Shown: positions 395-62,603 of the stretch, piece after piece
Layout of the letters: the number at the start of each line of letters is the position of its first letter
Position numbering within the stretch: position 1 is the stretch's first letter
Source: Eledone cirrhosa
Taxonomy: Eukaryota
Length of the DNA: 64,000 bases
Reading direction: 5' to 3'
NCBI GenBank assembly: GCA_964016885.1
Contig: OZ024747.1
Location: 73,594,001-73,658,000 of the forward strand
The notes under the pieces: model-generated
Database searches by the model: none
Told to the model about the DNA's origin: nothing
What the model saw: the letters and a program-made list of their open reading frames with translations, nothing else
Translations under genes and position numbers: made by a program

Positions 395-432
<38 letters not shown>

Positions 433-1253: not shown

Positions 1254-1314
<61 letters not shown>

Positions 1315-2437: not shown

Positions 2438-2476
<39 letters not shown>

Positions 2477-2995
2477 TACATACACATATACATACACACA
2501 CACACATACACATACACATATACATATACATATCTTTTTCAAAAAATTGCATAGAATATATTAACTAGGTATATATCCAAAACACATCCCATTCTATGAT
2601 TACATGACATTCTGCAATTCGTCTGTATAAGGATACTAATTTTAAGCAAATTAAAATTAAAATTTTTAGGTTGATTAAAACTAAAACCAAATAATAAATA
2701 TATTTCTAAAATGTATATTAATTAGGTCTATAATACTAAAAATTATTTCTCTGTCATTGGATACACGATATTATTTTGTTATATTTTATCTGTAAAAGAA
2801 TTATAATAAAAGGTTTAAATAAATTAAAATTAATCTATAAATTTAATTACTAAGTATATATTAGTAATATTTAAAGGTTTTTCACAATTTATGATTACAT
2901 AATATTTTATATTCTCATCTGTAAAAAAATATTAATTAAATTAAATTTATAGGTTAACTAACATTTAAATTAAGTTAATTTCTAAAATAATGTTA

Positions 2996-5437
2996 TTAAT
3001 TAGGTTTATAATATTTAAATGTTTTTTTTAGTTTATGATTACACGATATAATTAATTCCTGTCGTTTATTTAATAAGATATCCTTAGACTTCATTATTTC
3101 AAATAGTTCTTGGGAACATAATCTACATTCATTTCTATTATTTTGATAAGGGGTGGCTCTTTTGAGCACACTCCAGGTCAAATCATATTTTATATTCTTA
3201 TTTTTATAACTATTGATTTTTTCTGCTAGAGATGTTGTATTAGCCAGTGCGGCATTTTTAAAACTATGCTTGTGGGTATTAAACCTTGTCTTTAAATTGT
3301 TAGAGGTAGCTCCTATATATGAGCAAATAGAATCTTTAGTTTTAACATTACATTTATAGACTATGTTGTTAACAAGACAATTCCCTTTTAATGGGCAGTT
3401 TGCTTTGTTTCTACAGTTACATCCTTTCGTTAATTCTGTATTTGAGGAGATATTATGGTTAATTTGATGTACTGGTGGTATACTTATGGTTTTCTTACAT
3501 TTATATGCATTATATGCACTTATATTTTGTTTTATGTTATTTGTTGTAGAGTATGAGAATTTAACTGTAGACCTATTTAAGATTTGATGGTATTTGTGGT
3601 TTGGCGGGAAGTTTTTCTCAAGGATATAAAAAAATTTTTTAGCAATATTATCCTTAACTTGTAAATTAAAAGGAGCATTATACCAAGTAACCCGTCTATT
3701 ACGGTTTCTATGTTGTTTATTATTTTTATTATTTTTATAGGTTGTATCGTGATTTTTACTAGGAGGATTAATGTTAATGATCTCACCACAACTATTTTTA
3801 GTTATATTTGTAGATTTAGGTGTTTTATCCTTTTTATTAGGAGTTTTATTATTAATATTTATTATAGTTGTATGATGAGTAGTTTTTTGAGAGTTACTAT
3901 ACTTTATATTAGAAGATTTAGTATTTTGGGGTATAGTGTGGGTGGCATTTAGGTGTGTACTTTTCATTTGGTGTTTGTTGGTAATATTATGTTGTATGCT
4001 TTCAGTATTTTTAGTAGAAGGTATATACTCTAATCTATTTTTGTGGCCACTTCTATCTAGAGCTTCGTTATAGAAGGTCGCATTTTTATCAAATACATCT
4101 TGGTTAGAAGAAAGGTTAGAAATTCTAAGTGATATATTATATGCAAGGTTTTTAAGGATAGATTTAGGGTGATTAGATTGTGAGTGTATGTAATGTAAGT
4201 TTTGGTTAGGTTTATGGTAAGGTTGGTAGATACCCGTAGCTAAATCTAAAGTTATATCTAGGAAATTTACTACTTTACTTGTTTTTTCAAAAGTAATATT
4301 AAGATTATAATAGTCTTTAAGGAAAGTTCTAATATGTTTTTTGTTTTTTTCGATTTCTGAAAGGCTAAGGTTGTTAGAAAGAAGAAGACAGTCATCACGA
4401 TATAAACCACCTTTGAGGTGGGGAAAAGAGGCATTTATGTTGAAAAGGAGAAAGAGGCCCACAAGATCAGTAATTTGGGCGGAATCGCTTGAACCCATAG
4501 TAATATCAAAAAGATTACTGTATGTGTTTCTGGTCCAGTATTCATTCTGAAATTCAATAAGTGTTAGTCTAGCATGTGTAATAATGTTAATGTCATCCAA
4601 AGTTAAGTTAGATCTATTTTTAGCAAATATCAATGCTTTGTTCAGGAGTATAGGTGATATAGAAGAATAGTAATTATCTATATCAAATTGTAGGAAAGAA
4701 GCAGAAGATTTACACCTAATATTTTTAAACCAGTTAATTACCTGGGAGGTGTTTTCCCAGAGTGGTAAAATAACGTGTTTTCTTATTTGTGGGATGACTC
4801 TATCTAAAATTTTTTTGCTAATTATTCCAATATCTGATTTGGAGGGACATATAAGTCTAATAGAAGGATTTGAGTTAAAGTTAGATTTGTGATCTTTCAG
4901 GTTGAAGTGTGGTCTTTTCAATGCCAAAGGTTCAGTTCTATCTTCAATGTTTAGTTTTTTTACTATGTTGTGTGTTTTGTTGTTGATGTTGGTGAGTGAC
5001 ACATTATTAGATTTTTTATAATTTTTTCTGAGTTCTTTATATATGAACTCGTTATAATGTTCAATATCCATATGATACAAGTTACCAGTTTTGTCCGAGT
5101 GGACATGGATTTTTTTAGACTTTTTTAGGTCCAATAGGGTAGAATCAAGGTCCTTTTGAAAGACGGATTTATACTTTTTAAATTTGAGGTGTTTAATTAA
5201 ATTAAAAAGGTCTTTCTCGAAGTCTTCAAGTAAAAAGTTGTGTGGTGGATTCTTGTAAGTATTGAAATCATACATATATTTCCGATCTGCTTGTTTAGAT
5301 TTTCTATCGAAGTGGTAGGCTCTCCATCTAACCCTTCTGATAAAATTATTAGTTTTCTGAATCATAAGGAGTAAGAAGTCGTCCTTAGAAGGTATTGGTA
5401 TGTTTTTTAAGGAGGTTCCTAAATATTGTTTTTCCAT
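2996..5437 (-). CDS. Penelope-like (Naiad-like) reverse transcriptase + GIY-YIG endonuclease, intact, 813 aa from the first ATG
   Basis: N-term SLKNIPIP..RRVRWRA; RT motifs FDIDNYYSSI, FDITMGSSDSAQITDLVG, GLYRDD, VNFLDITL; CNCRNKANCPLKGNC knuckle; IVY..YIG..R..H nuclease; CRLC. Track start 5458 is TTG, first ATG is 5437. Confidence 0.92.
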   Translation of the reverse strand: MEKQYLGTSLKNIPIPSKDDFLLLMIQKTNNFIRRVRWRAYHFDRKSKQADRKYMYDFNTYKNPPHNFLLEDFEKDLFNLIKHLKFKKYKSVFQKDLDSTLLDLKKSKKIHVHSDKTGNLYHMDIEHYNEFIYKELRKNYKKSNNVSLTNINNKTHNIVKKLNIEDRTEPLALKRPHFNLKDHKSNFNSNPSIRLICPSKSDIGIISKKILDRVIPQIRKHVILPLWENTSQVINWFKNIRCKSSASFLQFDIDNYYSSISPILLNKALIFAKNRSNLTLDDINIITHARLTLIEFQNEYWTRNTYSNLFDITMGSSDSAQITDLVGLFLLFNINASFPHLKGGLYRDDCLLLSNNLSLSEIEKNKKHIRTFLKDYYNLNITFEKTSKVVNFLDITLDLATGIYQPYHKPNQNLHYIHSQSNHPKSILKNLAYNISLRISNLSSNQDVFDKNATFYNEALDRSGHKNRLEYIPSTKNTESIQHNITNKHQMKSTHLNATHTIPQNTKSSNIKYSNSQKTTHHTTIININNKTPNKKDKTPKSTNITKNSCGEIININPPSKNHDTTYKNNKNNKQHRNRNRRVTWYNAPFNLQVKDNIAKKFFYILEKNFPPNHKYHQILNRSTVKFSYSTTNNIKQNISAYNAYKCKKTISIPPVHQINHNISSNTELTKGCNCRNKANCPLKGNCLVNNIVYKCNVKTKDSICSYIGATSNNLKTRFNTHKHSFKNAALANTTSLAEKINSYKNKNIKYDLTWSVLKRATPYQNNRNECRLCSQELFEIMKSKDILLNKRQELIISCNHKLKKTFKYYKPN

Positions 5438-5780
5438 TGTGATATGGATGATGGACAATTGAAAGAGCTCAACTAAATGTATATGGGTTTACAAAATCAT
5501 ACATATATATATGTTTATACATAAATATAAAATTAATACACACATACAGTACAAAAATACGAATATTTCCGTGAAAATAGGAGCAAAATTATGTAGATAA
5601 ATCTACCAAGAGTTTACGGTAGTGTCCAATCCGTATGAAGAACTCAATGTATTCCGGATATCATGGAAAGAAGAGATGTAATGAAAAACCACTTTCGGTG
5701 AAAGATAAACGGTATACAGAGTCAAGATAAAATATTAAACAAATAATGAATAAACAATTCCTTATATTAAACAAAAAAAG

Positions 5781-5935
5781 TTCATTATTTAACGATCGTT
5801 TCTAGGATATATATGTGTTAGAATTGGTATGCATATTCAACAGATCTATGTACAAAATTATACAAAATTATACAAATTATCAAGATTAAATATACATACC
5901 AAACACATATATACGCCGTCTTCAGAAATAATGAA
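5781..5935 (-). ncRNA. Hammerhead ribozyme, inverted copy
   Basis: Reverse complement of 16466-16620. Confidence 0.85.
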
Positions 5936-6239
5936 GTATATTTATTGATAATAACAACAATTCAAAATTTCAGTTCAAAATTGACCAATGAAAACACAAA
6001 GGGTTAAATGCAGTTCGGTGTGTGTATATACATGTAAAACCCTTACACATATTTTACAAAAATGTATGTATAATTTGTATACGCATACTAAAAGGATGGA
6101 TGCAAATGTCATGTAATCATAGAATGGGATGTGTTTTGGATATATACCTAGTTAATATATTCTATGCAATTTTTTGAAAAAGATATGTATATGTATATGT
6201 GTATGTGTATGTGTGTGTGTGTATGTATATGTGTATGTA

Positions 6240-6278
<39 letters not shown>

Positions 6279-7399
6279 ATGTGTGTATATATATGTATAT
6301 ATGTATGTGTATGTATGTGTATATGTATGCGTATTAATTTTGATTTCTATTTGCATATAATTATATTATGCTATTGATGAAATACAATATCTGCTTTATG
6401 TATTGTATACCTAATTAACATATACTATTGAAATAAATTTATAATTTTTAATTTAGTTAACATATAATTTATATTCTACTACCGATGTAATACTTTATTT
6501 TATTTTTATTTGTGTTTTTTTTCCCTATTACTAAATTCATTTCCTAATATTGATACCATAACGTTTTTAACTTTAATTTAGTTATACTGTAATTAATAAT
6601 CTACTACTGTTTAACTTCAAAATTCTGCTTCAAATATTATAAACCTAACTAATTTACACCTTAGAAATCAATATGTTGACTATCTTTGGTTTAGTTAACA
6701 TATGATTAATGGTATACTTGTTTATTTTGAGATGCATAGATTTTGCCTTAGTTCTTGTTTGTTGTATTTCCTAACACTGAAAATATGTAAGAACATACAT
6801 TGGATAAAGATGCGGAAAATATTCTGTTTCTTGAAACATATATTTACTTTGATCCCCTTCTCCAAACCCCCCCTTTCCCCCATACTATTATCATCTGTAT
6901 TTGTAAGCGTCTATGTATGAATATATATGTAGGTAGGTGTCTATATAGGTTTGGGTATTTATATCTAAATATAAAAATACATATATGCGCATGCAAATAT
7001 GAATGTAAGATTGCGTGTGTATATATGAGTGTGTATATGTATGTATATATGTGTATATATGCATTATATATGTATGTGTATGTGAATGTGTGTACGTATA
7101 TGTGTATGTATGTGTATATATGTGTATATATGTGTATGCATGTATATATAGGAATATATATATGTATATATATATGTATATGTATATGCGTGTGTATGTA
7201 TGTGTGTGTATGTGTGTTGTATATATATGTATGTCTCTCTATTTATATGTTTATCTTCGTATCTATGTGATATATGTGTGTGTGTGTGCATGTATGCATA
7301 TGTATGTGTTTATGTGTATGTGTGTGTGTGTGTGTATATATGTGTGTGTGCACACACACACATATATATATGTGAGTGTGTATATGTGTCTGTGTATAT

Positions 7400-7460
<61 letters not shown>

Positions 7461-7579
7461 TGTCTATGTGTGAATATATGTCTATATTCGTATGTGTGTA
7501 TTTATGTATGTATATGTTTATATGTATGTATGTATGTGTATGTATGTATGTGTATATATATATGTGTATGTATATATAT

Positions 7580-8035
7580 GAGGCAAAGGAGCTCTTAAGA
7601 GTCAATGGCCATCCAAAATCACCGGGAGAGATGACCCCTTAGCCTTTGTCAAGGCAGAATTCTAGGAGAAGGAAAACTCTGATATAACACCTGCAACCCT
7701 GATGGTATCCAATGATGTTGACTTGTTCTTCTTTTTGGTAAATATCATCTTGGTTAAGAGAGTGGGACTGGCTTTGTGCAGTGCCTTTGCTCACTATAAA
7801 AGCTTCACGGCACAGGCATTGCTTTATATCTGGAGATCTCTCTGCATTTGTCGTCACATGGTACCATGGGCCCAGCACTATGTGTCAATAATTGTCACAA
7901 GTGTAGTGTTTGTACCAGAACTTTCAAGTCGCTGGCTGGACTAAAAAGTCACACTCGTTCAGCGCATCAGTAGGGGTTCTCCTACATGGATATAAAGTAG
8001 TGGCCGTACTCGAAAACGAGTTGGCAGCCACCATG
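7580..8035 (+). mobile_element. Non-autonomous bipartite RTE-LINE derivative nested in the pLTR
   Basis: RTE-like 5'UTR (ctaggagaaggaaaactctga) joined to a C-terminal C2H2 remnant CSVCTRTFKSLAGLKSHTRSAHQ* (7902-7973) and a 3' hairpin ctcg-aaaa-cgag; related free copy at 50690-51231. Confidence 0.7.
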
Positions 8036-8281
8036 TATATATATATATATATATATATATTATTCTTTATTATTATAATATAACTTATGTGTATGTGTGT
8101 ATAAGTGAGGTTGTGTATGTGTATATAATATGTGTATATATAAGTGTAAAAAAATATATATATATGTGCATGTCTGTTTTTTATGTGTGTGTATATATAT
8201 ATATATATATATACGTGTGTATATATATGTATATGTGGGTGTTTGTATGTGTATTTATGGTGGTATGAGTGTGTGCATATC

Positions 8282-8312
<31 letters not shown>

Positions 8313-8764
8313 GTATGAGTGTATGTGTGTGTATATATATATATATATATGTGTATATATATATATATATATATGTGTATGTATGTGTGTATATATATAT
8401 CTCTATTAATGCGTGTGTGTATGTATATACATATGCCTTTTTATTATTATTTTTATTTGTATGTCTGAGTTAGGTGAGGTTGTAGTGGTTTTTTATGTAT
8501 ATACGCATATATAGATGCGTATGTATTTGTATATATGAGTATAAGTAAGTGCATATGTATGTATGATTATATATCTAATTCTATGTATGAATATACATGT
8601 ATATATATATGTGTGTATGTAAGTTGTGTGTGTATGTATCTATATGTCTATGTGTGTGTATATATATATATATATATATGTATATCGATGTACGTATATG
8701 TATGTACATGTATGTACATGTATGTGTGTATGTATGTGTATGTATATTTAGGTGTATGTGTATG

Positions 8765-8803
<39 letters not shown>

Positions 8804-9621
8804 ATATATATATATATGTATATATCTTTATTATTTATTTTTTATATATATGTGTATGTGTGTATGTGTTGCGTGTGTGTGTGTGTATATATATATCTTT
8901 ATATATGTGTATGTGTATGTTCGTGTAGGTGTATGTGTGTGTATGACTGTATATGTATGTGTGTATGTGTGTATGCGTAAATATTTCTATGTGTGTGTAC
9001 ATGTATGTATGTGTATATATCTGTATGTGTATGTATATTATATTATATTTATTATATTTTATTGTTTTATTTTTTTATTTTTCTTAATTTATAGATACAT
9101 TTATATTAGGCAGTCTGCTCAGACAGTTGAATACTGACCCCTTCCCCTCCCCTCCCACCTAATTTCTGTATCTTGATCTAAAAATGTGTGTGCCAGTGTT
9201 TTATGTGAGTGAATTAATATCCATGTGCTTATGATTTTATATCCACATATATAAATGTGAGTGGGGGTGTGTGTGTGTTTGTATGTTCGTGGTTATGTGT
9301 ATATTTATGCATATACGTGCGTGTATGTGTGATTGTACTGATATGTGTGAGTATGAAAAAATATATTTATATACTTGACTTCATATGTATCAATGCGCAT
9401 CTTATCTGCGCATTGTAAGCTTACAGAGACATTAACCTTGAAATTTTGTATTTGCATCCATCCTTTTAGTATGCGTATACAAATTATACATACATTTTTG
9501 TAAAATATGTGTAAGGGTTTTACATGTATATACACACACCGAACTGCATTTAACCCTTTGTGTTTTCATTGGTCAATTTTGAACTGAAATTTTGAATTGT
9601 TGTTATTATCAATAAATATAC

Positions 9622-9776
9622 TTCATTATTTCTGAAGACGGCGTATATGTGTGTTTGGTATGTATATTTAATCTTGATAATTTGTATAATTTTGTATAAT
9701 TTTGTACATAGATCTGTTGAATATGCATACCAATTCTAACACATATATATCCTAGAAACGATCGTTAAATAATGAA
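9622..9776 (+). ncRNA. Type-I hammerhead ribozyme with extended stem II and palindromic mini stem III
   Basis: TTCATTATTT-CTGAAGA-[116-nt hairpin region]-GAAAC-GATC-GTT-AAATAATGAA; perfect 10-bp stem I; predicted cut after 9766. Confidence 0.85.
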
Positions 9777-10119
9777 CTTTTTTTGTTTAATATAAGGAAT
9801 TGTTTATTCATTATTTGTTTAATATTTTATCTTGACTCTGTATACCGTTTATCTTTCACCGAAAGTGGTTTTTCATTACATCTCTTCTTTCCATGATATC
9901 CGGAATACATTGAGTTCTTCATACGGATTGGACACTACCGTAAACTCTTGGTAGATTTATCTACATAATTTTGCTCCTATTTTCACGGAAATATTCGTAT
10001 TTTTGTACTGTATGTGTGTATTAATTTTATATTTATGTATAAACATATATATATGTATGATTTTGTAAACCCATATACATTTAGTTGAGCTCTTTCAATT
10101 GTCCATCATCCATATCACA

Positions 10120-12543
10120 ATGGAAAAACAATATTTAGGAACCTCCTTAAAAAACATACCAATACCTTCTAAGGACGACTTCTTACTCCTTATGATTCAG
10201 AAAACTAATAATTTTATCAGAAGGGTTAGATGGAGAGCCTACCACTTCGATAGAAAATCTAAACAAGCAGATCGGAAATATATGTATGATTTCAATACTT
10301 ACAAGAATCCACCACACAACTTTTTACTTGAAGACTTCGAGAAAGACCTTTTTAATTTAATTAAACACCTCAAATTTAAAAAGTATAAATCCGTCTTTCA
10401 AAAGGACCTTGATTCTACCCTATTGGACCTAAAAAAGTCTAAAAATATCCATGTCCACTCGGACAAAACTGGTAACTTGTATCATATGGATATTGAACAT
10501 TATAACGAGTTCATATATAAAGAACTCAGAAAAAATTATAAAAAATCTAATAATGTGTCACTCACCAACATCAACAACAAAACACACAACATAGTAAAAA
10601 AACTAAACATTGAAGATAGAACTGAACCTTTGGCATTGAAAAGACCACACTTCAACCTGAAAGATCACAAATCTAACTTTAACTCAAATCCTTCTATTAG
10701 ACTTATATGTCCCTCCAAATCAGATATTGGAATAATTAGCAAAAAAATTTTAGATAGAGTCATCCCACAAATAAGAAAACACGTTATTTTACCACTCTGG
10801 GAAAACACCTCCCAGGTAATTAACTGGTTTAAAAATATTAGGTGTAAATCTTCTGCTTCTTTCCTACAATTTGATATAGATAATTACTATTCTTCTATAT
10901 CACCTATACTCCTGAACAAAGCATTGATATTTGCTAAAAATAGATCTAACTTAACTTTGGATGACATTAACATTATTACACATGCTAGACTAACACTTAT
11001 TGAATTTCAGAATGAATACTGGACCAGAAACACATACAGTAATCTTTTTGATATTACTATGGGTTCAAGCGATTCCGCCCAAATTACTGATCTTGTGGGC
11101 CTCTTTCTCCTTTTCAACATAAATGCCTCTTTTCCCCACCTCAAAGGTGGTTTATATCGTGATGACTGTCTTCTTCTTTCTAACAACCTTAGCCTTTCAA
11201 AAATCGAAAAAAACAAAAAACATATTAGAACTTTCCTTAAAGACTATTATAATCTTAATATTACTTTTGAAAAAACAAGTAAAGTAGTAAATTTCCTAGA
11301 TATAACTTTAGATTTAGCTACGGGTATCTACCAACCTTACCATAAACCTAACCAAAACTTACATTACATACACTCACAATCTAATCACCCTAAATCTATC
11401 CTTAAAAACCTTGCATATAATATATCACTTAGAATTTCTAACCTTTCTTCTAACCAAGATGTATTTGATAAAAATGCGACCTTCTATAACGAAGCTCTAG
11501 ATAGAAGTGGCCACAAAAATAGATTAGAGTATATACCTTCTACTAAAAATACTGAAAGCATACAACATAATATTACCAACAAACACCAAATGAAAAGTAC
11601 ACACCTAAATGCCACCCACACTATACCCCAAAATACTAAATCTTCTAATATAAAGTATAGTAACTCTCAAAAAACTACTCATCATACAACTATAATAAAT
11701 ATTAATAATAAAACTCCTAATAAAAAGGATAAAACACCTAAATCTACAAATATAACTAAAAATAGTTGTGGTGAGATCATTAACATTAATCCTCCTAGTA
11801 AAAATCACGATACAACCTATAAAAATAATAAAAATAATAAACAACATAGAAACCGTAATAGACGGGTTACTTGGTATAATGCTCCTTTTAATTTACAAGT
11901 TAAGGATAATATTGCTAAAAAATTTTTTTATATCCTTGAGAAAAACTTCCCGCCAAACCACAAATACCATCAAATCTTAAATAGGTCTACAGTTAAATTC
12001 TCATACTCTACAACAAATAACATAAAACAAAATATAAGTGCATATAATGCATATAAATGTAAGAAAACCATAAGTATACCACCAGTACATCAAATTAACC
12101 ATAATATCTCCTCAAATACAGAATTAACGAAAGGATGTAACTGTAGAAACAAAGCAAACTGCCCATTAAAAGGGAATTGTCTTGTTAACAACATAGTCTA
12201 TAAATGTAATGTTAAAACTAAAGATTCTATTTGCTCATATATAGGAGCTACCTCTAACAATTTTAAGACAAGGTTTAATACCCACAAGCATAGTTTTAAA
12301 AATGCCGCACTGGCTAATACAACATCTCTAGCAGAAAAAATCAATAGTTATAAAAATAAGAATATAAAATATGATTTGACCTGGAGTGTGCTCAAAAGAG
12401 CCACCCCTTATCAAAATAATAGAAATGAATGTAGATTATGTTCCCAAGAACTATTTGAAATAATGAAGTCTAAGGATATCTTATTAAATAAACGACAGGA
12501 ATTAATTATATCGTGTAATCATAAACTAAAAAAAAACATTTAA
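10120..12543 (+). CDS. Second copy of the Naiad-like RT/GIY-YIG ORF with a +1 A frameshift in the last codons
   Basis: Same protein except three substitutions (SKKIH/SKNIH, SEIEK/SKIEK, NNLKT/NNFKT) and the end KLKKNI* instead of KLKKTFKYYKPN* (A-run ~12528-12537). Confidence 0.92.
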   Translation: MEKQYLGTSLKNIPIPSKDDFLLLMIQKTNNFIRRVRWRAYHFDRKSKQADRKYMYDFNTYKNPPHNFLLEDFEKDLFNLIKHLKFKKYKSVFQKDLDSTLLDLKKSKNIHVHSDKTGNLYHMDIEHYNEFIYKELRKNYKKSNNVSLTNINNKTHNIVKKLNIEDRTEPLALKRPHFNLKDHKSNFNSNPSIRLICPSKSDIGIISKKILDRVIPQIRKHVILPLWENTSQVINWFKNIRCKSSASFLQFDIDNYYSSISPILLNKALIFAKNRSNLTLDDINIITHARLTLIEFQNEYWTRNTYSNLFDITMGSSDSAQITDLVGLFLLFNINASFPHLKGGLYRDDCLLLSNNLSLSKIEKNKKHIRTFLKDYYNLNITFEKTSKVVNFLDITLDLATGIYQPYHKPNQNLHYIHSQSNHPKSILKNLAYNISLRISNLSSNQDVFDKNATFYNEALDRSGHKNRLEYIPSTKNTESIQHNITNKHQMKSTHLNATHTIPQNTKSSNIKYSNSQKTTHHTTIININNKTPNKKDKTPKSTNITKNSCGEIININPPSKNHDTTYKNNKNNKQHRNRNRRVTWYNAPFNLQVKDNIAKKFFYILEKNFPPNHKYHQILNRSTVKFSYSTTNNIKQNISAYNAYKCKKTISIPPVHQINHNISSNTELTKGCNCRNKANCPLKGNCLVNNIVYKCNVKTKDSICSYIGATSNNFKTRFNTHKHSFKNAALANTTSLAEKINSYKNKNIKYDLTWSVLKRATPYQNNRNECRLCSQELFEIMKSKDILLNKRQELIISCNHKLKKNI

Positions 12544-13081
12544 ATATTATAAACCTAATTAATAACATTATTTTAGAAATTAACTTAATTTAAATGTTAG
12601 TTAACCTATAAATTTAATTTAATTAATATTTTTTTACAGATGAGAATATAAAATATTATGTAATCATAAATTGTGAAAAACCTTTAAATATTACTAATAT
12701 ATACTTAGTAATTAAATTTATAGATTAATTTTAATTTATTTAAACCTTTTATTATAATTCTTTTACAGATAAAATATAACAAAATAATATCGTGTATCCA
12801 ATGACAGAGAAATAATTTTTAGTATTATAGACCTAATTAATATACATTTTAGAAATATATTTATTATTTGGTTTTAGTTTTAATCAACCTAAAAATTTTA
12901 ATTTTAATTTGCTTAAAATTAGTATCCTTATACAGACGAATTGCAGAATGTCATGTAATCATAGAATGGGATGTGTTTTGGATATATACCTAGTTAATAT
13001 ATTCTATGCAATTTTTTGAAAAAGATATGTATATGTATATGTGTATGTGTATGTGTGTGTGTGTATGTATATGTGTATGTA

Positions 13082-13120
<39 letters not shown>

Positions 13121-14241
13121 ATGTGTGTATATATATGTATATATGTATGTGTATGTATGTGTATATGTATGCGTATTAATTTTGATTTCTATTTGCATAT
13201 AATTATATTATGCTATTGATGAAATACAATATCTGCTTTATGTATTGTATACCTAATTAACATATACTATTGAAATAAATTTATAATTTTTAATTTAGTT
13301 AACATATAATTTATATTCTACTACCGATGTAATACTTTATTTTATTTTTATTTGTGTTTTTTTTCCCTATTACTAAATTCATTTCCTAATATTGATACCA
13401 TAACGTTTTTAACTTTAATTTAGTTATACTGTAATTAATAATCTACTACTGTTTAACTTCAAAATTCTGCTTCAAATATTATAAACCTAACTAATTTACA
13501 CCTTAGAAATCAATATGTTGACTATCTTTGGTTTAGTTAACATATGATTAATGGTATACTTGTTTATTTTGAGATGCATAGATTTTGCCTTAGTTCTTGT
13601 TTGTTGTATTTCCTAACACTGAAAATATGTAAGAACATACATTGGATAAAGATACGGAAAATATTCTGTTTCTTGAAACATATATTTACTTTGATCCCCT
13701 TCTCCAAACCCCCCCTTTCCCCCATACTATTATCATCTGTATTTGTAAGCGTCTATGTATGAATATATATGTAGGTAGGTGTCTATATAGGTTTGGGTAT
13801 TTATATCTAAATATAAAAATACATATATGCGCATGCAAATATGAATGTAAGATTGCGTGTGTATATATGAGTGTGTATATGTATGTATATATGTGTATAT
13901 ATGCATTATATATGTATGTGTATGTGAATGTGTGTACGTATATGTGTATGTATGTGTATATATGTGTATATATGTGTATGCATGTATATATAGGAATATA
14001 TATATGTATATATATATGTATATGTATATGCGTGTGTATGTATGTGTGTGTATGTGTGTTGTATATATATGTATGTCTCTCTATTTATATGTTTATCTTC
14101 GTATCTATGTGATATATGTGTGTGTGTGTGCATGTATGCATATGTATGTGTTTATGTGTATGTGTGTGTGTGTGTGTATATATGTGTGTGTGCACACACA
14201 CACATATATATATGTGAGTGTGTATATGTGTCTGTGTATAT

Positions 14242-14300
<59 letters not shown>

Positions 14301-14419
14301 TGTCTATGTGTGAATATATGTCTATATTCGTATGTGTGTATTTATGTATGTATATGTTTATATGTATGTATGTATGTGTATGTATGTATGTGTATATATA
14401 TATGTGTATGTATATATAT

Positions 14420-14875
14420 GAGGCAAAGGAGCTCTTAAGAGTCAATGGCCATCCAAAATCACCGGGAGAGATGACCCCTTAGCCTTTGTCAAGGCAGAAT
14501 TCTAGGAGAAGGAAAACTCTGATATAACACCTGCAACCCTGATGGTATCCAATGATGTTGACTTGTTCTTCTTTTTGGTAAATATCATCTTGGTTAAGAG
14601 AGTGGGACTGGCTTTGTGCAGTGCCTTTGCTCACTATAAAAGCTTCACGGCACAGGCATTGCTTTATATCTGGAGATCTCTCTGCATTTGTCGTCACATG
14701 GTACCATGGGCCCAGCATTATGTGTCAATAATTGTCACAAGTGTAGTGTTTGTACCAGAACTTTCAAGTCGCTGGCTGGACTAAAAAGTCACACTCGTTC
14801 AGCGCATCAGTAGGGGTTCTCCTACATGGATATAAAGTAGTGGCCGTACTCGAAAACGAGTTGGCAGCCACCATG
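14420..14875 (+). mobile_element. Third nested copy of the RTE derivative
   Basis: Near-identical to 7580-8035. Confidence 0.7.
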
Positions 14876-15121
14876 TATATATATATATATATATATATAT
14901 TATTCTTTATTATTATAATATAACTTATGTGTATGTGTGTATAAGTGAAGTTGTGTATGTGTATATAATATGTGTATATATAAGTGTAAAAAAATATATA
15001 TATATGTGCATGTCTGTTTTTTATGTGTGTGTATATATATATATATATATATACGTGTGTATATATATGTATATGTGGGTGTTTGTATGTGTATTTATGG
15101 TGGTATGAGTGTGTGCATATC

Positions 15122-15159
<38 letters not shown>

Positions 15160-15606
15160 AGTGTATGTGTGTGTATATATATATATATATATGTGTATAT
15201 ATATATATATATATATGTGTATGTATGTGTGTATATATATATCTCTATTAATGCGTGTGTGTATGTATATACATATGCCTTTTTATTATTATTTTTATTT
15301 GTATGTCTGAGTTAGGTGAGGTTGTAGTGGTTTTTTATGTATATACGCATATATAGATGCGTATGTATTTGTATATATGAGTATAAGTAAGTGCATATGT
15401 ATGTATGATTATATATCTAATTCTATGTATGAATATACATGTATATATATATGTGTGTATGTAAGTTGTGTGTGTATGTATCTATATGTCTATGTGTGTG
15501 TATATATATATATATATATATGTATATCGATGTACGTATATGTATGTACATGTATGTACATGTATGTGTGTATGTATGTGTATGTATATTTAGGTGTATG
15601 TGTATG

Positions 15607-15647
<41 letters not shown>

Positions 15648-16465
15648 ATATATATATATATGTATATATCTTTATTATTTATTTTTTATATATATGTGTA
15701 TGTGTGTATGTGTTGCGTGTGTGTGTGTGTATATATATATCTTTATATATGTGTATGTGTATGTTCGTGTAGGTGTATGTGTGTGTATGACTGTATATGT
15801 ATGTGTGTATGTGTGTATGCGTAAATATTTCTATGTGTGTGTACATGTATGTATGTGTATATATCTGTATGTGTATGTATATTATATTATATTTATTATA
15901 TTTTATTGTTTTATTTTTTTATTTTTCTTAATTTATAGATACATTTATATTAGGCAGTCTGCTCAGACAGTTGAATACTGACCCCTTCCCCTCCCCTCCC
16001 ACCTAATTTCTGTATCTTGATCTAAAAATGTGTGTGCCAGTGTTTTATGTGAGTGAATTAATATCCATGTGCTTATGATTTTATATCCACATATATAAAT
16101 GTGAGTGGGGGTGTGTGTGTGTTTGTATGTTCGTGGTTATGTGTATATTTATGCATATACGTGCGTGTATGTGTGATTGTACTGATATGTGTGAGTATGA
16201 AAAAATATATTTATATACTTGACTTCATATGTATCAATGCGCATCTTATCTGCGCATTGTAAGCTTACAGAGACATTAACCTTGAAATTTTGTATTTGCA
16301 TCCATCCTTTTAGTATGCGTATACAAATTATACATACATTTTTGTAAAATATGTGTAAGGGTTTTACATGTATATACACACACCGAACTGCATTTAACCC
16401 TTTGTGTTTTCATTGGTCAATTTTGAACTGAAATTTTGAATTGTTGTTATTATCAATAAATATAC

Positions 16466-16620
16466 TTCATTATTTCTGAAGACGGCGTATATATGTGTTT
16501 GGTATGTATATTTAATCTTGATAATTTGTATAATTTTGTATAATTTTGTACATAGATCTGTTGAATATGCATACCAATTCTAACACATATATATCCTAGA
16601 AACGATCGTTAAATAATGAA
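16466..16620 (+). ncRNA. Hammerhead ribozyme, downstream pLTR copy
   Basis: Same motif as 9622-9776; predicted cut after 16610, 64 nt before the element 3' end. Confidence 0.85.
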
Positions 16621-16665
16621 CTTTTTTTGTTTAATATAAGGAATTGTTTATTCATTATTTGTTTA

Positions 16666-16875
<210 letters not shown>

Positions 16876-18807: not shown

Positions 18808-19140
<333 letters not shown>

Positions 19141-19156
19141 TATATATATATATATA

Positions 19157-19828
19157 AGTTATAAGAATCAAAGTTCTGATCAAATCATTTATATGCTTAC
19201 AATTGTTTCCTCCAAACCGAGGTTTGGATCTTCGGAGCAATTTATTAATGGATGATCACATATATGACCTCATTTTCAACCCAAGAGACATACAGATACA
19301 TATGCAAACATTGTTGCTTGGTAGGTCGACAACCAATATAATATTTAGTGCGGCAGTATACATTTAAAGGTTGCATTCATATCCAAAGAGGATAAAATCA
19401 AAAATTAAGGTTAAAGATATCGCATTAATTTCATGTATTTTAACCTTAATTTTTGATTTAACCTCTTTGGATATGAATGTAACCTTTAAATGTATACTGC
19501 CGCACTAAATATTATATTGGTTGTCGACCTACCAAGCAACAATGTTTGCATATGTATCTGTATGTCTCTTGGGTTGAAAATGAGGTCATATATGTGATCA
19601 TCCATTAATAAATTGCTCCGAAGAATCCAAACCTCGGTTTGGAGGAAACAATTGTAAGCATATACATGATTTGATCAGAACTTTGATTCTTATAACTTAT
19701 ATATAACTGCTCTGTTAAACATCTGATGTTAGTACATTGAGCTATTTAACTTACTGGTAATAAGGTAGTAATATATTACTGCCTATCACTATTTAGGGTT
19801 TGTAAAAATATATATAACTACAAAAGGT
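19157..19828. mobile_element. Large fold-back element (~260-bp arms, ~16-nt spacer) with an HHR in each arm, in (TA)n
   Basis: 19157-19419 is the reverse complement of 19436-19697 with few mismatches; unpaired tail to 19828. Confidence 0.85.
19614..19660 (+). ncRNA. Minimal hammerhead, CCGAAGA core variant (mirror copy 19194-19239 on -)
   Basis: TGCT-CCGAAGA-a-TCCAAACC-tc-GGTTTGGA-g-GAAAC-AATT-GTA-AGCA. Confidence 0.7.
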
Positions 19829-19863
19829 TTTTGTATTTGCATAACCATAAATAGTATCCTTAA

Positions 19864-19929
<66 letters not shown>

Positions 19930-24359: not shown

Positions 24360-24708
24360 ATGTACGTGACGTATTATCTTCGTTTTTTTCGTTCATTGCC
24401 AGAGAACGTCTCTATGAACCACCTATGAGAACATTAGTCTACGACCTCTTATACCATAAACGTGATTCTGTCTGCGCGTAAATGTTTTTCACCGCTCCTA
24501 TTAATGACGTATTATATTCGGTTTTTTTCCCGTTCTTTGACAGCGAACGTTACCACGAACCAAAATATCGTCTTCCTGTCTTCCTCCGGTTGCAACGTTT
24601 TTGAAATATCCACTTCTGCGTTTACAGATTGACTTTGTTAGTTTCATAAGATCCCGTTAAGGGTGAAAGCAGCGATTCTTTGCTTAAACTTTAATCTGTT
24701 ATTTTAAT
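24360..24708 (+). mobile_element. PLE 3'-end fragment with a degenerate HHR (24640-24690, core CATAAGA) ending in (TA)n
   Basis: AGTTT-CATAAGA-tCCC-gttaa-GGGt-GAAA-GCA..TGC-TT-AAACT; internal ~55-bp degenerate direct repeat at 24366 and 24504. Confidence 0.6.
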
Positions 24709-24732
24709 ATATATATATATATATATATATAG

Positions 24733-24788
<56 letters not shown>

Positions 24789-25990
24789 ATGTTCAGTTTT
24801 GTTCTAAAAGTTTGTCAAAGCTAGAGATAGAATTATTCTAACACAGAGACCAGACTCATTCATTTCTATTTACACATCAACTAAACAATTATCTTTGTAT
24901 GTCTGTAAGTGTTTCTTTATCGTTACAACATTATAACTGTTGCTATAAATTCTTTAATATATTCTGTCCACATTATAGCAGTATTTACTATACATAGTGT
25001 AAAGTGTGCCAGCACTATAATCCCACTGATGTGGCATGATATTTTCTTTTACTAATTAACACAGAAACTTATCAAGATGCTTAAATGCTAACTTACGGTT
25101 GCATGATATGAACAGATTAAACTAAAACGTGGGTATGAGACATTTCTTTTACTGAATAAAAAGCAACCTTTATTTGTTCCTTGTTGCTGCCAATTTATCA
25201 CAATTTAGAGCAAGGAATAGGCCTTCTCTGATACATCCCTGGTGGGACCTAGTATAGCCACGTGTAGCGCAACTTAGTTCAGTGTCAAATAAAAGAATAC
25301 TTTTGGTCTAGAATATATCGGTATCTGTGTTCGTATTCTCTAATTAGGTCAAATTCCCGTAGTTTAATATATATTGTTTTTATTTTAAACCCTGACATTG
25401 CTCCATTTTAATTTGGTCATTTGTGCTCTATTTATTGTCTTTTATTAATAGAATATACAGCTTGTACGTGATTAGTACATAATTTACAATATAGTATTAA
25501 AGAGAATATAATTCCTTAATGGAAAAACCTGGGAGACTTAGAACTAAATTATAATAGAGATGTAAAACCAAAATAACATGAAGTAACTATTCTCCGATTT
25601 ATATTCTCAACAAATAATTCAAAGGCAGAACATTTCAAATGTATTATGAGTATGTCACATATGTCCCCAGCATGGCATTTTTTGTTTACATTTTCACTAA
25701 AGTTTTTACTGCGGAAATATGATATACCGATCCATAATTCAATTTGTTTGGTGCCTCTTGGTTTGCATGTGAATTGATTGTAAATAAAGCTTGGTCTAAT
25801 AACGTGACTTCGTTGTTTAGCCGACAGATAAGCCTCATGTAATGGTGTTACCGTAAAAGCTCACCTCTGCATGTTTCCTGTATTTCAAAGACACACAAGA
25901 AATAGATAGATATTTTAGATGTGTAAAAGCAGGTTTAATGCATTATCATATATCTCTCTAGGATGTGACCTGTATTGCTAAACAGTTTAC

Positions 25991-26233
<243 letters not shown>

Positions 26234-27981
26234 CAGCTTGTACGTGATTAGTAGTACATAATTTACAATATAGTATTAAAGAGAATATAAATCCTTAATG
26301 GAAAAAATCTGGGAGACTTAGAACTAAATTGTAATATAGATCTAAAACCATGTGTGTCTGTGTATGTGTGTGTGTGCGTGTGTGTGTGCGTGTGTGCGTG
26401 CATGCGTGTGAGTGTGTGTGTGTATGTGTATGTGTATGTGTGTGTGTGTGTGTGTGTGTAAATTGTTTAGCAATACAGGTCACATCCTACAGAGATATAT
26501 GATAATGCATTAAATCTGCTTTTACACATCTAAAATATCTCTATATTTCTTGGGTGTCTTTGAAATACAGGAAACATGCAGAGGTGAGCTTTTACGGCAA
26601 CAACATTACATGGGGCTTACCACACACACACCCACACAATCACACAGACGAGGAAGTAACAGGAAATAGATTAAGACAAATCACGTATTATATTCTGTCA
26701 GTCATTTTGGAGAAATTAACTATTTGTTTGCGGTTTATGAGATGAGAAATGATTTACCTAATCCAGCTTTTCATACAATAACTACTTGTTCATTTGCGAT
26801 ATTTATTTCATAATTATTTCACAGAAGGGGAAAAAGTCCTACTTTAGAGTGGAATAATACATTCCGAATTCAGAAAAAAATGTTCAGACTAACAATGATG
26901 CCTGAAGTATTTCGGAGTGAGTTACTGAAAGAGAGAAGAAGAGACGAAGGGAGAAAATGAGAGAGATACTTTCTAAGATTTACAGTTCTGTCTTTTGAAT
27001 TTGAAAAGAAAATGTCGGTAGTTTTCAGGAATGTTGTTCAAGAATAGACAAAAACCTCTCAAGAGCTACGAAGAAGGAAATAGTTGTTTGGTGGTTGTGA
27101 GAAAGATTGCAACAATAAAACTAAGTATGAAAAAAATATCAGCAAAAATTGTAGAAATAGAATCAAATACCAATACCAACTGCAAGAAATTACAATTACA
27201 AATAAAACATAAAAGATTTTTTGAAAATCTAGTGATATTTTTCTTGCATGTTGGAAGCGTAATTCCATTGTTTCTAGAAATGTCTAGAAAGTTTTGCAGA
27301 AAAATAATTGTGGAAGTTATACAACTCTATATAACTCCTGAAGTTTTGTAAGTATATTCGATAGTTTTCTTTTTGAAATTTATTTCTATATATCGTCTTT
27401 TATGTCAATAAAAACAAAGCGATATCATTCCAATCAAAACCAAATTACAGCAAATATAAAGAAATACCGGCTTCATTTCAACACATCCTTTTTCTTTAGT
27501 TTATAAAACCCTCAACTTCGAGAACAAATTTGAATTATCTTTTTTAATGAAATTCAAAGTACATTACAAAATAATGCCAGAAAGATAAAAAAATAAAAAA
27601 TAAAGATATAACATTAAATATAACAGAAAAGAATCCAAAGATTCTTTAAACCCGATTGAAACGAATTCATGAGATTTCATATTTTTTTCTTCGTCTTCAT
27701 TTTAAAGTAGTAGTTAATTTATCGATTTTGCTTGGTTAACTGATCGATAGTATTTGGCTACAATGTGACATGAGGATTACATCAGCAGAGCAATGTTGTT
27801 TTTACTTTATTTTATTCGATGTAATTATACGAACTAAAGCTGAAGGAAAGAAGTACAAAGCCTGATTTAACATTAATTTACTGCGATCTGTCCTGAACAG
27901 CTTATCTATATTGCCTATTGTCTACGTTGTGATATTGTTCTTGTCTTCAGGAAGAATACATACATACTTACATACATATAT

Positions 27982-28785: not shown

Positions 28786-30159
28786 GTGGTGGTACAGTGT
28801 TTAAGTTGACTGACGAGGTGGTACCGTGTTTAAGTTGACTGACGAGGTGGTACCGTGTTTAAGTTGACTGACGACGTGGTACAGTGTTTAGGTTGACTGA
28901 CGAGGTGGTACAGTGTTTAAGTTGACTGACGACGTGGTACAGTGTTTAAGTTGACTGACGACGTGGTACAGTGTTTAAGTTGACTGACGACGTGGTACAG
29001 TGTTTAAGTTGACTGACGACGTGGTACAGTGTTTAGGTTGACTGACGAGGTGGTACCGTGTTTAGGTTGAGTGACGAGGTGGTACCGTGTTTAGGTTGAG
29101 TGACGAGGTGCTACCGTGTTTAGGTTGAGTGACGAGGTGCTACCGTGTTTAGGTTGACTGACGAGGTGCTACCGTGTTTAGGTTGACTGACGAGGTGGTA
29201 CCGTGTTTAGGTTGACTGACGAGGTGGTACCGTGTTTAGGTTGACTGACGAGGTGGTACCGTGTTTAGGTTGACTGACGAGGTGCTACCGTGTTTAGGTT
29301 GACTGACGAGGTGGTACCGTGTTTAGGTTGACTGACTTGGTGGTACCGTGTTTAGGTTGAGTGACGAGCTGGTACCGTGTTTAGGTTGACTGACGAGGTG
29401 GTACCGTGTTTAGGTTGACTGACGAGGTGGTACCGTGTTTAGGTTGACTGACGAGGTGGTACCGTGTTTAGGTTGACTGACGAGGTGGTACCGTGTTTAG
29501 GTTGACTGACGAGGTGGTACCGTGTTTAGGTTGACTGACGAGGTGGTACCGTGTTTAAGTTGACTGACGAGGTGGTACCGTGTTTAAGTTGACTGACGAG
29601 GTGGTACCGTGTTTAGGTTGACTGACGAGGTGGTACCGTGTTTAAGTTGACTGACGAGGTGGTACCGTGTTTAGGTTGACTGACGAGGTGGTACCGTGTT
29701 TAGGTTGACTGACGAGGTGGTACCGTGTTTAGGTTGACTGACGAGGTGGTACCGTGTTTAGGTTGACTGACGAGGTGGTACCGTGTTTAGGTTGACTGAC
29801 GAGGTGGTACCGTGTTTAAGTTGACTGACGAGGTGGTACCGTGTTTAGGTTGACTGAGGTGGTGGTACCGTGTTTAAGTTGACTGACGAGGTGGTACCGT
29901 GTTTAGGTTGAGTGACGAGCTGGTACCGTGTTTAAGTTGACTGACGCGGTGGTACCGTGTTTAAGTTGACTGACGAGGTGGTACCGTGTTCAGGTTGACT
30001 GACGAGGTGGTACCGTGTTTAAGTTGACTGACGAGGTGCTACCGTGTTTAAGTTGACTGACGAGGTGGTACCGTGTTTAGGTTGACTGACGAGGTGGTAC
30101 CGTGTTTAGGTTGACTGACGAGGTGCTACCGTGTTTAGGTTGACTGACGAGGTGCTACC
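28786..30159. repeat. 29-bp minisatellite, ~47 copies (GAGGTGGTACCGTGTTTARGTTGACTGAC)
   Basis: Exact 29-bp period, no spacers. Confidence 0.97.
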
Positions 30160-30281: not shown

Positions 30282-30282
<1 letters not shown>

Positions 30283-31627
30283 TCTCTGGCGCCCGGCTAG
30301 ATATACCGGCATTTTATCTTTTCAGGAATCCCCCCTACACTCTAGTGCAAAGGTACCGCACGTCCTCTCAAGTCAGCGGGGTGGGGGCAGGGAGCGGTAA
30401 CGTGCTCTGATGTTAGGTTTGAATAGTTTTTAGCATTCCCCAGATCAGCAGCCAGTACGTTAAAGCAAATTGATAGTTACAACAATAAAGGCTGAACAGA
30501 GAACACATTTTTTAACAAACAATAATTTGTACAACCATAATGGAAATTCCAAGTAACAGAAAATATTTAAATTACATTGTTAGAGCCTCAGAGTATACAA
30601 TATTTTTTGTTCGGCCGTCCGGGCAAAGATGAAGATATTGTTTGGTGAACTCACCCTAGAGCATCCTACATACAATTGATCATGGCAGAATCATTGATGT
30701 AGACGTTGACCTCTGGACACTCCTGTCAGGAGCAGGTAAGCTGTAGTGACTTAGAGGCCTATCGCCAATCTCCATGACACTGTTTTCAACACAAATGAGC
30801 GCCTCATTGTAAACGACATCGTATTTTACGTTCGGATTGTGTCTGCGTGTGCGGGGAAGGATGCCCTCAGCTAGACTTTCGTGGTGGTTGTTCCACATTG
30901 CGAGAGGGTCGGCGAGATCGCAGTTGTGCAGCATAATAGCAAAAGGTTTTCGCAGCTGAGAAGGGACTTTAGCAGTTGCTGCATCTTGCAGGGTGAGGTA
31001 CCAATGGCTGTCATCGTGTAACATACCACGCATCTAGCAAGCCAAATGGTAAGTGGAAAATTGATGTCCATTGATGATTCTCAGATCTTGGAGAGACTGT
31101 GATCCTCTAACCTCGAACAGTAACAATGACGATAAGCCATCTGTGCTTTCGTGAAATGAATAGGTTTTTGTTTTTGTGTATGCAAAACTATCTGTACACG
31201 AATATATATATATTAAAATTACAGATTAAAGTTTGAGCAAAGAATCGCTGCTTTCACCCTTAACGGGATCTTCTGAAACTATAAAAATCAGTCTAATGAA
31301 GGCACTCAGACATACAGAGACATATTATAAGGGCGCTACGTTATAGCTATGTATCTATCTAAAAAGACAGACTAAAAAAAAGAGGGGAATGGTGTGCGAC
31401 GTCATAAGAAAAAGTGAGGAATGACGTATAACCGGAAGTGTTGCATTTGAAATTTTAAAGAAGTGAATATTTAAATAATGTCTTTAATCTTTTAACAAAA
31501 TTCAGTAGACAAAAGTACCCTCACTTTTTTACTTGGAAAAAGTTACATCTATGGTGCAAATTTGGTGGTATTTGAGCCAACCGTTTGGCGGAAAGTTTGT
31601 TACCTACATACGGCCGTCAGCTTTATA

Positions 31628-31635
<8 letters not shown>
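30282..31635 (-). mobile_element. Internally deleted, degenerate Helitron
   Basis: Minus-strand RepHel remnants LLLFEVRGSQSLQDLRIING..C*MRGMLHDDSHW..PSQLRKPFAIML..C..ADPLAMW (31125-30720) joined to the helicase end HDQLYVGCSRV..RTKNIVYSEAL (30685-30580); GC hairpin near 30286-30310; tatactataaagctga-type 5' end near 31630; boundaries approximate. Confidence 0.8.
31230..31280 (-). ncRNA. Hammerhead, CAGAAGA core variant, in a PLE 3' fragment nested in the Helitron
   Basis: Minus strand: AGTTT-CAGAAGA-tCCC-gttaa-GGGt-GAAA-GCA-gcgattctt-TGC-TC-AAACT, then a short (TA)n. Confidence 0.65.
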
Positions 31636-31674
<39 letters not shown>

Positions 31675-31677
<3 letters not shown>

Positions 31678-33230
31678 TAAAGATACTTTTTATGGTTATG
31701 TATATACTAAAACCTTTTATAGTTATATATATTTTAAACCCTAAATAGAGAAAGACAGTAATTTATTACTACCTTATTACCAGTAAGATAAATAGCTCAA
31801 TGTAATAACATCAGTTGTTCTACAGAGCAGTTATATAGAAATTACATGAATCAAAGTTCTGTTCAAACCATTTATTCGCTTACAATTGTTTCTTCCAAAC
31901 CGAGGTTTGGAGTCTTCGGAGCAATTTTTCAATGATTGTTTACATACATGACCTCCTTTCCAACACAAGAGACATACAGAAACATATATATATATCGATG
32001 TACAGTGGGGTGACATCCATTATAATAATATAGCATGGTAATTTACATTCAAAGATTAAAGTCATATTAAAACACATTGTAAGTGAGAATTGATCTCTGG
32101 TCTACCCTAGTGATATTTAACTTTGCCATGCAATCAGACATGCACTGACCCAGAGCTTACCAGGAGTTATATATATAGAAGTGATTCTAATAAAACCCTG
32201 CCAGATTCTGCGGGTAGACTACACTTACAAAGATCATTGATTTGGGGATCTGACTCTTCAAGTGGAATATTCACTTGTGGCACTCTATGATAGAGGGTAA
32301 TCATCCTAATATGAACACCTTTAGTACTTCTTGATAGACTACACTGTAATTTATAGATAGGATACTTACATTTTAGAAACTGTTTATAACCTTATATGAT
32401 AGGGACTCATTTGAGACACCATTTAATGTACATTAGGATAATAAATTTAGTTATAGAAATCAGCTAGTTACCTCCCCTCACGCATTAACTCCCCTTAATC
32501 ACACACACACTTCCGGAAAATAATACGATGTCAATTCTCGCAACAAAAACAACCTGCTCTATAAAATTGGATTAAAGAACAACAAGCTGTAATATTCTAA
32601 CATAATTCATCAAGCATCAAATACTGAATCATCGTAGATTATGTGAAGGACATATAATCTATATATTACGTTTCCTGGATTGTGAAAATGGTGGTGTATA
32701 CGAAAACCATAACATTGTTTTGCTTCTCATTTTTAATATTTTTAATATTTCTCTGCACACAAGCTTCTATATCATACATATAAAAAAATACTTTACCAAT
32801 ACAACCCCCATAATACTATTGATTGCCTGCTTAAAGTGCTTGTATTACATATAACAGCCTGCCGCACCATAATCTTATATAAATAAGACACATGTGCATG
32901 CCCCATGTGTATCTATTGCATACACTAACTACTTCTAACTATCCTCTTGCATTATCTTCGTAAACTGCCAATGTTGTATCTTAACTTTAATTTTGTTTTC
33001 TTTTAATATGACTTTAATCTTTGAATGTAAATTGCCATGCTAAAATATTATAATGGATGTCAACCCACTGTGCATCAATATATACATATGTTTCTGTATG
33101 TCTCTTGTGTTGGAAAGGAGGTCATGTATGTAAACAATCATTGAAAAATTGCTCCGAAGACTCCAAACCTCGGTTTGGAAGAAACAATTGTAAGCGAATA
33201 AATGGTTTGAACAGAACTTTGATTCATGTC

Positions 33231-33232
<2 letters not shown>
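31675..33232. mobile_element. PLE-derived element with ~229-bp inverted arms (31844-32072 / 33001-33229), 928-bp spacer and outward-facing CCGAAGA HHRs (31877-31923 -, 33149-33197 +), between (TA)n tracts
   Basis: Mirror ORF-track peptides 31831-32016(-) and 33057-33338(+); arms and tail homologous to 19157-19828. Confidence 0.8.
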
Positions 33233-33273
<41 letters not shown>

Positions 33274-34824: not shown

Positions 34825-34829
<5 letters not shown>

Positions 34830-35020
34830 AAAAAGTATGACCCCGACGGTAGAGCTCAAGCCGTTTCGACGGCTATTTCTCGACGAGTCCAGAAATAGCC
34901 ATCGAAACGGCTTGAGCTCTGCCGTCGGGGTCATACTTTTTCCTATTTCCCACTCTACTACCCTAAGTATTGAGTACTCTGGTGCGTTATGGTCCATCTG
35001 GTTCCTTACCACAATTCCTT

Positions 35021-61903: not shown

Positions 61904-61937
61904 ATATTATATTAATATATATATATATATATATATA

Positions 61938-62116
61938 GGAAAAGATTCAGGACCCCGACGGCTGAGCTCCGGCCGTTTCGACAGCTATTTCTGAAATAGC
62001 TGTCGAAATGGCCGGAGCTCAACCGTTGGGGTCCTGACTCTTTTCATATTAGCCACTCTGATGCCCGATGTATCGAGTACTTATGGTCCACCAAGTATCT
62101 TAACACACTTTCTCTG

Positions 62117-62300: not shown

Positions 62301-62553
62301 TATTGAAGTTTGCTTGAAGCATTGTGGAATAATAAATAAATATCTTTAAGTCGTTTGGAAGCCTCGACAATGCAAATGGGTAAATCTGCGGGTAACAAGA
62401 TCCGGTGGTGGAGTGAGAGATGTAAGTGGGTGTGTCTTTACATACCACGCATCTCAACGTACATCCACTTACATCTCTCTCTCTCCACCACCGGATCTTC
62501 TTACCCGGAGATTTACCCATTTGCATTGTCGAGGCTTCCAAACGACTTAAAGA

Positions 62554-62560
<7 letters not shown>
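62296..62560. mobile_element. Fold-back element in (TA)n without a recognisable HHR
   Basis: ~98-bp arms 62336-62433 / 62461-62560; mirror ORF-track peptides MEASTMQMGKS. Confidence 0.75.

Positions 62561-62603
<43 letters not shown>

Follow-up and report, generated by a model that had tools for sequence, protein, structure and literature searches.

A (TA)n-flanked inverted insertion in Eledone cirrhosa read as two head-to-head, 5'-truncated pieces of a Hydra-clade Penelope-like element

Structure of the insertion

The window, a stretch of 64,000 nucleotides from contig OZ024747.1 of Eledone cirrhosa (assembly GCA_964016885.1), carries at positions 31675-33234 an insertion set between a left (TA)n target array at 31629-31674 and a right one at 33234-33270. 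As the original prediction had stated, its inverted arms surround a 928-bp spacer; the arms, at 31832-32072 and 33001-33241, are 241 nt long, 96% complementary and 928 nt apart. The left part of the insertion is an inverted (minus-strand), 5'-truncated copy of 398 nt at 31675-32072, which corresponds to positions 3821-4215 of a full-length reference locus at 95.7% identity and whose outer end, a long (L) 3' end, adjoins (TA)n. The right part is a direct (plus-strand), 5'-truncated copy of about 1160 nt at 32074-33234, which corresponds to positions 2901-4061 of the same reference at 96.0% and terminates in a short (S) 3' end. The two pieces meet head-to-head at position 32073 with one extra base and, in this copy, without microhomology. 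Relative to the parent open reading frame (ORF), the insertion has a 3' end on either side, facing outward into (TA)n, as predicted; the two are not equivalent, however, since the left arm is 157 nt longer than the right (31675-31831, minus strand), so that the two ends of the insertion are different ends. These 157 nt form a tail between the short- and long-end sites, as judged from loci L036, L037 and L042.

The spacer (32074-33000, plus strand) is the part of the 3' untranslated region (UTR) present only in the longer arm. It is indeed non-coding: in full copies this sequence begins about 430 nt past the ORF stop, and its longest stop-to-stop frame, which lies after that stop, amounts to 82 amino acids, so that a coding spacer was rejected. 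The claim that this middle is unique did not survive a search of the same genome, in which it returned 3159 candidates, the best 40 of them scoring at 91-100% over nearly all 928 bases. In 29 of 29 other fetched loci, family sequence extends upstream of the middle, and in about half of them for at least 1.5 kb. As the middle is multicopy and continues to an ORF, both pieces of the locus come from the 3' UTR of a 4.2-kb element and are 5'-truncated, and a unique spacer or captured host DNA was rejected for the same reason. A miniature inverted-repeat (MITE) or terminal-inverted-repeat DNA transposon was discarded because the inner breakpoints vary between copies over 4 kb, with no fixed length or internal sequence; a non-autonomous retrozyme was likewise rejected, since in long copies the middle runs into the ORF. 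From its sequence, the feature at 31675-33234 is thus read as a single insertion of two head-to-head, 5'-truncated pieces of a Hydra-clade Penelope-like element (PLE) inside (TA)n.

An empty site for this insertion was sought and not found, the left flank being another repeat. This left neighbour (30282-31628; 1448 candidates) has ends that look Helitron-like; at this locus and in several further copies, (TA)n stands in place of the bases with which it normally ends. Further to the left, positions 28788-30159 hold a 29-bp unit repeated in tandem, its 47 copies being 96% alike.

The parent element

In 10-kb stretches around the copies, an ORF of about 830 codons lies upstream of the family sequence and is 42% identical to an intact ORF elsewhere in the window (10120-12540), over residues 3-794 of the latter. 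In the two loci where the parent ORF was read, L036 and L037, each with one frameshift, it encodes a reverse transcriptase core with RDD together with a GIY-YIG endonuclease at the C-terminus (IIYSCTV...YIG). Pfam gave no match above cut-off for the ORFs, and the assignment of the domains to an endonuclease-bearing (EN+) PLE therefore rests on motifs. The DKT motif is present (HADKTNN in L037, HSDKTGN in the window ORF); both proteins have RWR where the Hydra clade has RWK, a conservative change; the CxCX5C linker reads CNCRSNRTC, CxxC is CNLC and CxH is SCRH, while CCHH is absent and a single cysteine lies in the GIY-YIG core. The family inserts into (TA)n, as does the Hydra clade. By these motifs the parent is an autonomous Hydra-clade PLE; the Naiad clade was rejected because the endonuclease is C-terminal. 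The N-terminus of the protein differs by eye from that printed for Hydra-1_Obim, so this looks like another family. The parent unit measures about 4.2 kb with a 1.6-kb 3' UTR, and a pLTR precedes the ORF in L036, L037 and L042, which are partial tandems.

A minimal type-I hammerhead-like motif was read by eye at 33149-33197 on the plus strand (TTGCT-CCGAAGA-stem II-GAAAC-AATT-GTA-AGCGA), and arm symmetry places its mirror copy at 31876-31924 on the minus strand. In its core, C replaces the usual U4, a substitution kept in a sister family, and the motif is the majority form among about 81-87 arms. For stems I and II, the fold has a z-score of -1.1, which is not significant, and the Rfam scans returned no hammerhead, the matches listed (150 of 187 in the first scan) being low-complexity or chance hits; the hammerhead accordingly stays a candidate.

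Two fixed 3' ends

The family has two end sites, which lie 158 nt from each other, and copies stop at one or the other. The short end reads ...CATGTAATTTC followed by TA and the long end ...CCTTAATAC followed by TA, with a target homology of 6 nt at S and of 3 nt (TAT) at L. The tail at 31675-31831 continues into the 5' UTR and ORF of a next unit in L036, L037 and L042; because the sequence past L enters the ORF in such full-length tandems, the tail represents the 5' UTR of the unit that follows. Two side observations concern this region: at L102:1493-1657 the insertion consists of nothing but the tail, with a (TA)n run on either side, and at L096:1724-2890 both arms of a sister-family insertion carry the first 177 nt past the L end, a tandem read-through to the ORF start.

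Just downstream of the short-end site, a bulged hairpin (GCTC-TGTA...TACA-TT-GAGC) is predicted at 31795-31828 on the minus strand, and full copies have a twin of it after the long-end site (consensus RCTC...TT-GAGY). Predicted folds return the bulged hairpin at S of this family and at both S and L of the family at 1-16674; at L of the present family, they give the outer GCTC/GAGC stem only. In the sister family, the motif is visible by eye and the hairpin appears at neither site in one fold and at S in another, and a Neptune-like family is without it.

A (CT)n stutter occurs at 8 of 45 terminal S ends and at none of 39 internal S sites (p=0.006), and another four S ends reiterate their last 9-10 nt. 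Between the S end and (TA)n, the stutter can exceed 20 units; it or the 9-10-nt reiterations are seen, for example, in L084, L095, L109, L045 and L044. Breakpoints of L arms also cluster near S, with 6 of 18 falling within 31 of 271 nt (p=0.012, for a window picked post hoc). Given the fixed ends at TA and the stutter at S ends, both ends look as if they had been primed on the target.

Survey of insertions

Three genome searches, with the middle, the arm and the tail as queries, yielded 90 loci, of which 76 distinct insertions, this locus included, were left once 14 duplicate rows had been dropped; they were classed by eye from BLAST tables. In each search, the best 40 of 1181-3159 candidates were scored, so that the sample leans to young, query-like copies; moreover, two-armed copies are counted twice with the arm as query, and copies with S only escape a search with the tail. 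Two outward 3' ends were present in 51 of the 76 sampled insertions (67%, 95% CI 55-77%). The searches with the middle, arm and tail gave 18/28, 14/25 and 22/29 two-tailed insertions, respectively, this locus excluded. Six more insertions are inverted with one end lost or atypical, which brings all inversions to 57 of 76, and the other 19 are single-tailed (8 S and 11 L). Nearly all ends adjoin (TA)n. The two-tailed inverted insertion, announced as the normal product at all scales, is thus the commonest form in this sample, its arms measuring between 33 nt and about 4 kb, and the finding opposed to that claim, a rarity of inverted two-tailed copies, did not materialize.

The pairing of ends is nearly invariant: 50 of the 51 two-tailed insertions combine a long with a short end, one (L033) is long/long and none is short/short (p about 2e-14 against 50:50). 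Among 48 insertions, the S arm reaches further 5' in 24 and the L arm in 19, and the two are equal in 5; truncation is thus independent of end type. Breakpoints of the two arms are equal in L087 and L090, where they lie at the stem II palindrome, and in L106. Overlaps of 1-16 nt occur at the inner junctions of 24 of 49 insertions, and in 6 insertions the L arm stops within the tail and has no sequence in common with the S arm.

Related families in the same genome

Another insertion in the window, at 19149-19866, has its short end on the left and its long end on the right. The original prediction had placed it (as 19157-19828) in the same family as the insertion studied here; the two are homologous, but with 79-85% identity this is a sister family, the 157-nt tail at 31675-31831 matching its right end at 85% and the remainder matching at 79-82%. 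Similarly, the locus had been called a miniature of the element at 1-16674, and the architecture is indeed the same, while there is no match at the DNA level and the ORFs are 42% identical. The 1-16674 element shows the same long/short pairing, with S on the right, L on the left and a tail of about 137 nt; its left end, the long one, lies about 1.25 kb before the window. Together with L049:8646-9901, it represents a young Hydra-type element with two intact ORFs and arms that are 99.8% identical.

In a Neptune-like family that also inserts into (TA)n, the two ends are 60 nt apart; 13 of its 30 loci are two-tailed with both ends typed, and all 13 pair L with S. At L132:940-1130 (G000:C2, about 340512050-340512240), a short S arm of the Hydra family is joined head-to-head to an S arm of the Neptune-like family, with a 13-nt inverted piece of Neptune-like sequence at the junction; a two-RNA event or a later deletion are possible origins of this join. 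A search for a non-palindromic target among the PLE-like ORFs of the fetched loci found none: the 30 loci of the Neptune-like family terminate in (TA)n, and so do one Nematis-like copy and the 1-16674 element. The window further contains short inverted repeats, most of them beside (TA)n, at 18926-19135, 24626-24727, 25453-26619, 34828-34946, 61935-62049 and 62332-62564, which are probably the ends of other PLE families.

Variants shared between arms

The two arms of one insertion differ at 393 of 16533 sites (2.4%; 38 insertions with an overlap of at least 60 nt), compared with 5.2% between insertions. At polymorphic sites, agreement within an insertion is 497/528 versus 61%, and non-majority bases are shared in 61% of cases within insertions versus 8% between them; in the insertion at 31675-33234, the arms agree at 6 of 7 sites. 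Even where the arms have diverged most (18 insertions), they still agree at 100/116 of these sites versus 56%, and recent conversion is therefore not the whole cause. Gene conversion, fold-back copying or two RNAs of one source can nevertheless also yield shared arm variants.

In L045, L046 and L100, both arms carry a dense block of sense-strand A>G changes at reference positions of about 3389-3587, and 16 private A>G changes are common to both arms of L100. The blocks may stem from RNA editing of the sense template, and an unsampled parent copy would look alike; the pattern in these three loci resembles RNA hyper-editing that became fixed in a subfamily.

Origin of the inverted layout

The near-obligate long/short pairing, the independent truncations and the shared variants together narrow the mechanism of PLE insertion. 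We favor, with a probability of roughly 60%, a scheme in which both strands of the cut target served as primers for reverse transcription, from two distinct fixed sites on the element RNA, whence the pairing of a long with a short end. The GIY-YIG endonuclease would cut (TA)n on both strands; of the 3' ends set free, one would then start at L and its counterpart at S, in either case a few bases ahead of a bulged hairpin; both cDNAs would stop early at independent points and be joined head-to-head by end-joining. With two independent cDNA stops, arm length and spacer length would merely reflect two truncation points. The cut, the priming and the single source molecule are what we infer from the finished copies, and the template may have been a single RNA or a pair of RNAs from the same source locus; as most long arms extend past S, a single RNA would require strand displacement. 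Counted against priming at two sites are the 19 single-tailed insertions among the 76, the one long/long insertion (L033) and the two-family join in L132; against the assignment of one site to each strand stands the in vitro work on Poseidon, which found no difference in start site between strands (PMC11167929).

The original prediction had offered another cause: (TA)n being self-complementary, either target strand would pair with one and the same RNA 3' end, priming would be symmetric, and the palindromic target itself would produce the inversion. This is in keeping with the 51 two-tailed insertions among 76 and with nearly all ends adjoining (TA)n, and for the Chlamys elements, whose targets are (C)n/(CA)n, head-to-tail arrays are described, in an account that gives, in the part consulted, no count of inverted copies. 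Symmetric priming, however, predicts long/long and short/short insertions, whereas 50 of 51 pairs consist of two different ends; several ends show only 2-3 nt of target homology, and Poseidon primes without homology (PMC11167929). Moreover, the consulted parts of the accounts of Adineta and Drosophila virilis report, respectively, inverted copies with target duplications of 8-10 bp (PMC3846280) and the inverted form as the most frequent (PMC2377424). We therefore hold this cause to be highly improbable, although a palindromic target could still permit a cut of both strands.

Shared variants are also expected if only one strand primes and the cDNA then folds back, or self-primes on an antisense template, with the endonuclease trimming at an internal TATATA so that just one side keeps a tail, along the lines of proposals in the consulted parts of PMC3846280 and PMC8557442. 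The S site is itself TATATA and hence a plausible nuclease site, 24 of 49 insertions have a 1-16-nt overlap at the inner junction, and the equal breakpoints at the palindrome in L087 and L090, as well as those in L106, are explained by folding back equally well. Such copying nevertheless predicts an L arm that reaches further 5', whereas it is the S arm that does so in 24 of 48 insertions, this locus among them; it sits poorly with the 6 insertions whose L arm ends inside the tail and has nothing in common with the S arm, and the stutter at terminal S ends suits initiation better than trimming. We regard it as improbable. A shade less so, although still doubtful, is priming at the two sites on two RNAs held in one complex, for instance as a hammerhead dimer, and having in most cases one source locus or one multimeric transcript as their origin. 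Overlapping arms would then arise without strand displacement, dimers have been proposed for those PLE hammerheads whose helix III is palindromic (PMC4209133, in the part consulted), L132 joins two families and the long/long arms of L033 are 7.4% apart; but two free RNAs offer no obvious cause for the strict long/short pairing, the arms agree at subfamily sites far above the level of the pool, and the 16 private A>G changes of L100 are found in both arms.

If priming from the two cut strands at two fixed sites is extended to PLEs at large, twin priming could be a programmed step, in which a dimeric enzyme cuts the target on both strands and initiates one cDNA at each of two hairpin-marked sites of a single RNA, with a telomerase-like stutter at S. 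To this broader proposal we give somewhat less than even odds; if true, a single step would explain, across clades, both why the pLTR is inverted and why the tail is one-sided.

Comparison with known systems

In the twin priming of L1, a 5' inversion results when the second target strand primes at an internal site of the same RNA; there this site is variable and the pieces do not overlap, whereas here the site is fixed and the arms usually overlap. As for PLEs themselves, a search of the literature for numbers of inverted copies on different targets found none, and the texts of the papers cited here contain no count of long/short pairing. The inverted, 5'-truncated copy, often with a tail at one end only, is already described in the consulted part of PMC8557442, which calls the origin of the tandem and inverted PLE layouts undefined. 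The insertion at 31675-33234 is an ordinary dead PLE copy among thousands in a published layout, and its mechanistic value is modest; for annotation, such TA-flanked palindromes are retrotransposon ends and not MITEs.

Compared with the Hydra clade, as set out in the same part of that source (PMC8557442), the present family shares DKT, CxCX5C, CxxC/CxH, the absence of CCHH, the C-terminal GIY-YIG, (TA)n and the one-ended tail. It differs in its unit of about 4.2 kb, where the clade generally has less than 3 kb; in its 158-nt tail, where PLEs generally have 30-40 bp; in RWR for RWK; and in the C4 of the hammerhead-like core. The Penelope elements of Adineta vaga and Drosophila virilis likewise have inverted pLTRs, a one-sided tail and palindromes at some inverted junctions, the tail of the Adineta element lying on one of two inverted pLTRs next to 8-10 bp target duplications; in the consulted parts of both accounts, no microsatellite target is reported and the authors favor self-priming on an antisense template (PMC3846280, PMC2377424).

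The closest parallel is Poseidon of Anolis carolinensis, for which both target strands are cut and extended in vitro without a need for RNA-DNA homology, two internal start sites bound the tail and a protein dimer is predicted (PMC11167929). The two systems have in common a pair of start sites whose interval is the tail. Poseidon, however, belongs to another clade, has an ATT target and starts at sites within the ORF that are 30-40 nt apart (PMC11167929), whereas the sites here are in the UTR, 158 nt apart, and would be used one per strand in 50 of 51 insertions. The long/short pairing points to RNA sites and hairpins that could be mutated in the existing in vitro system.
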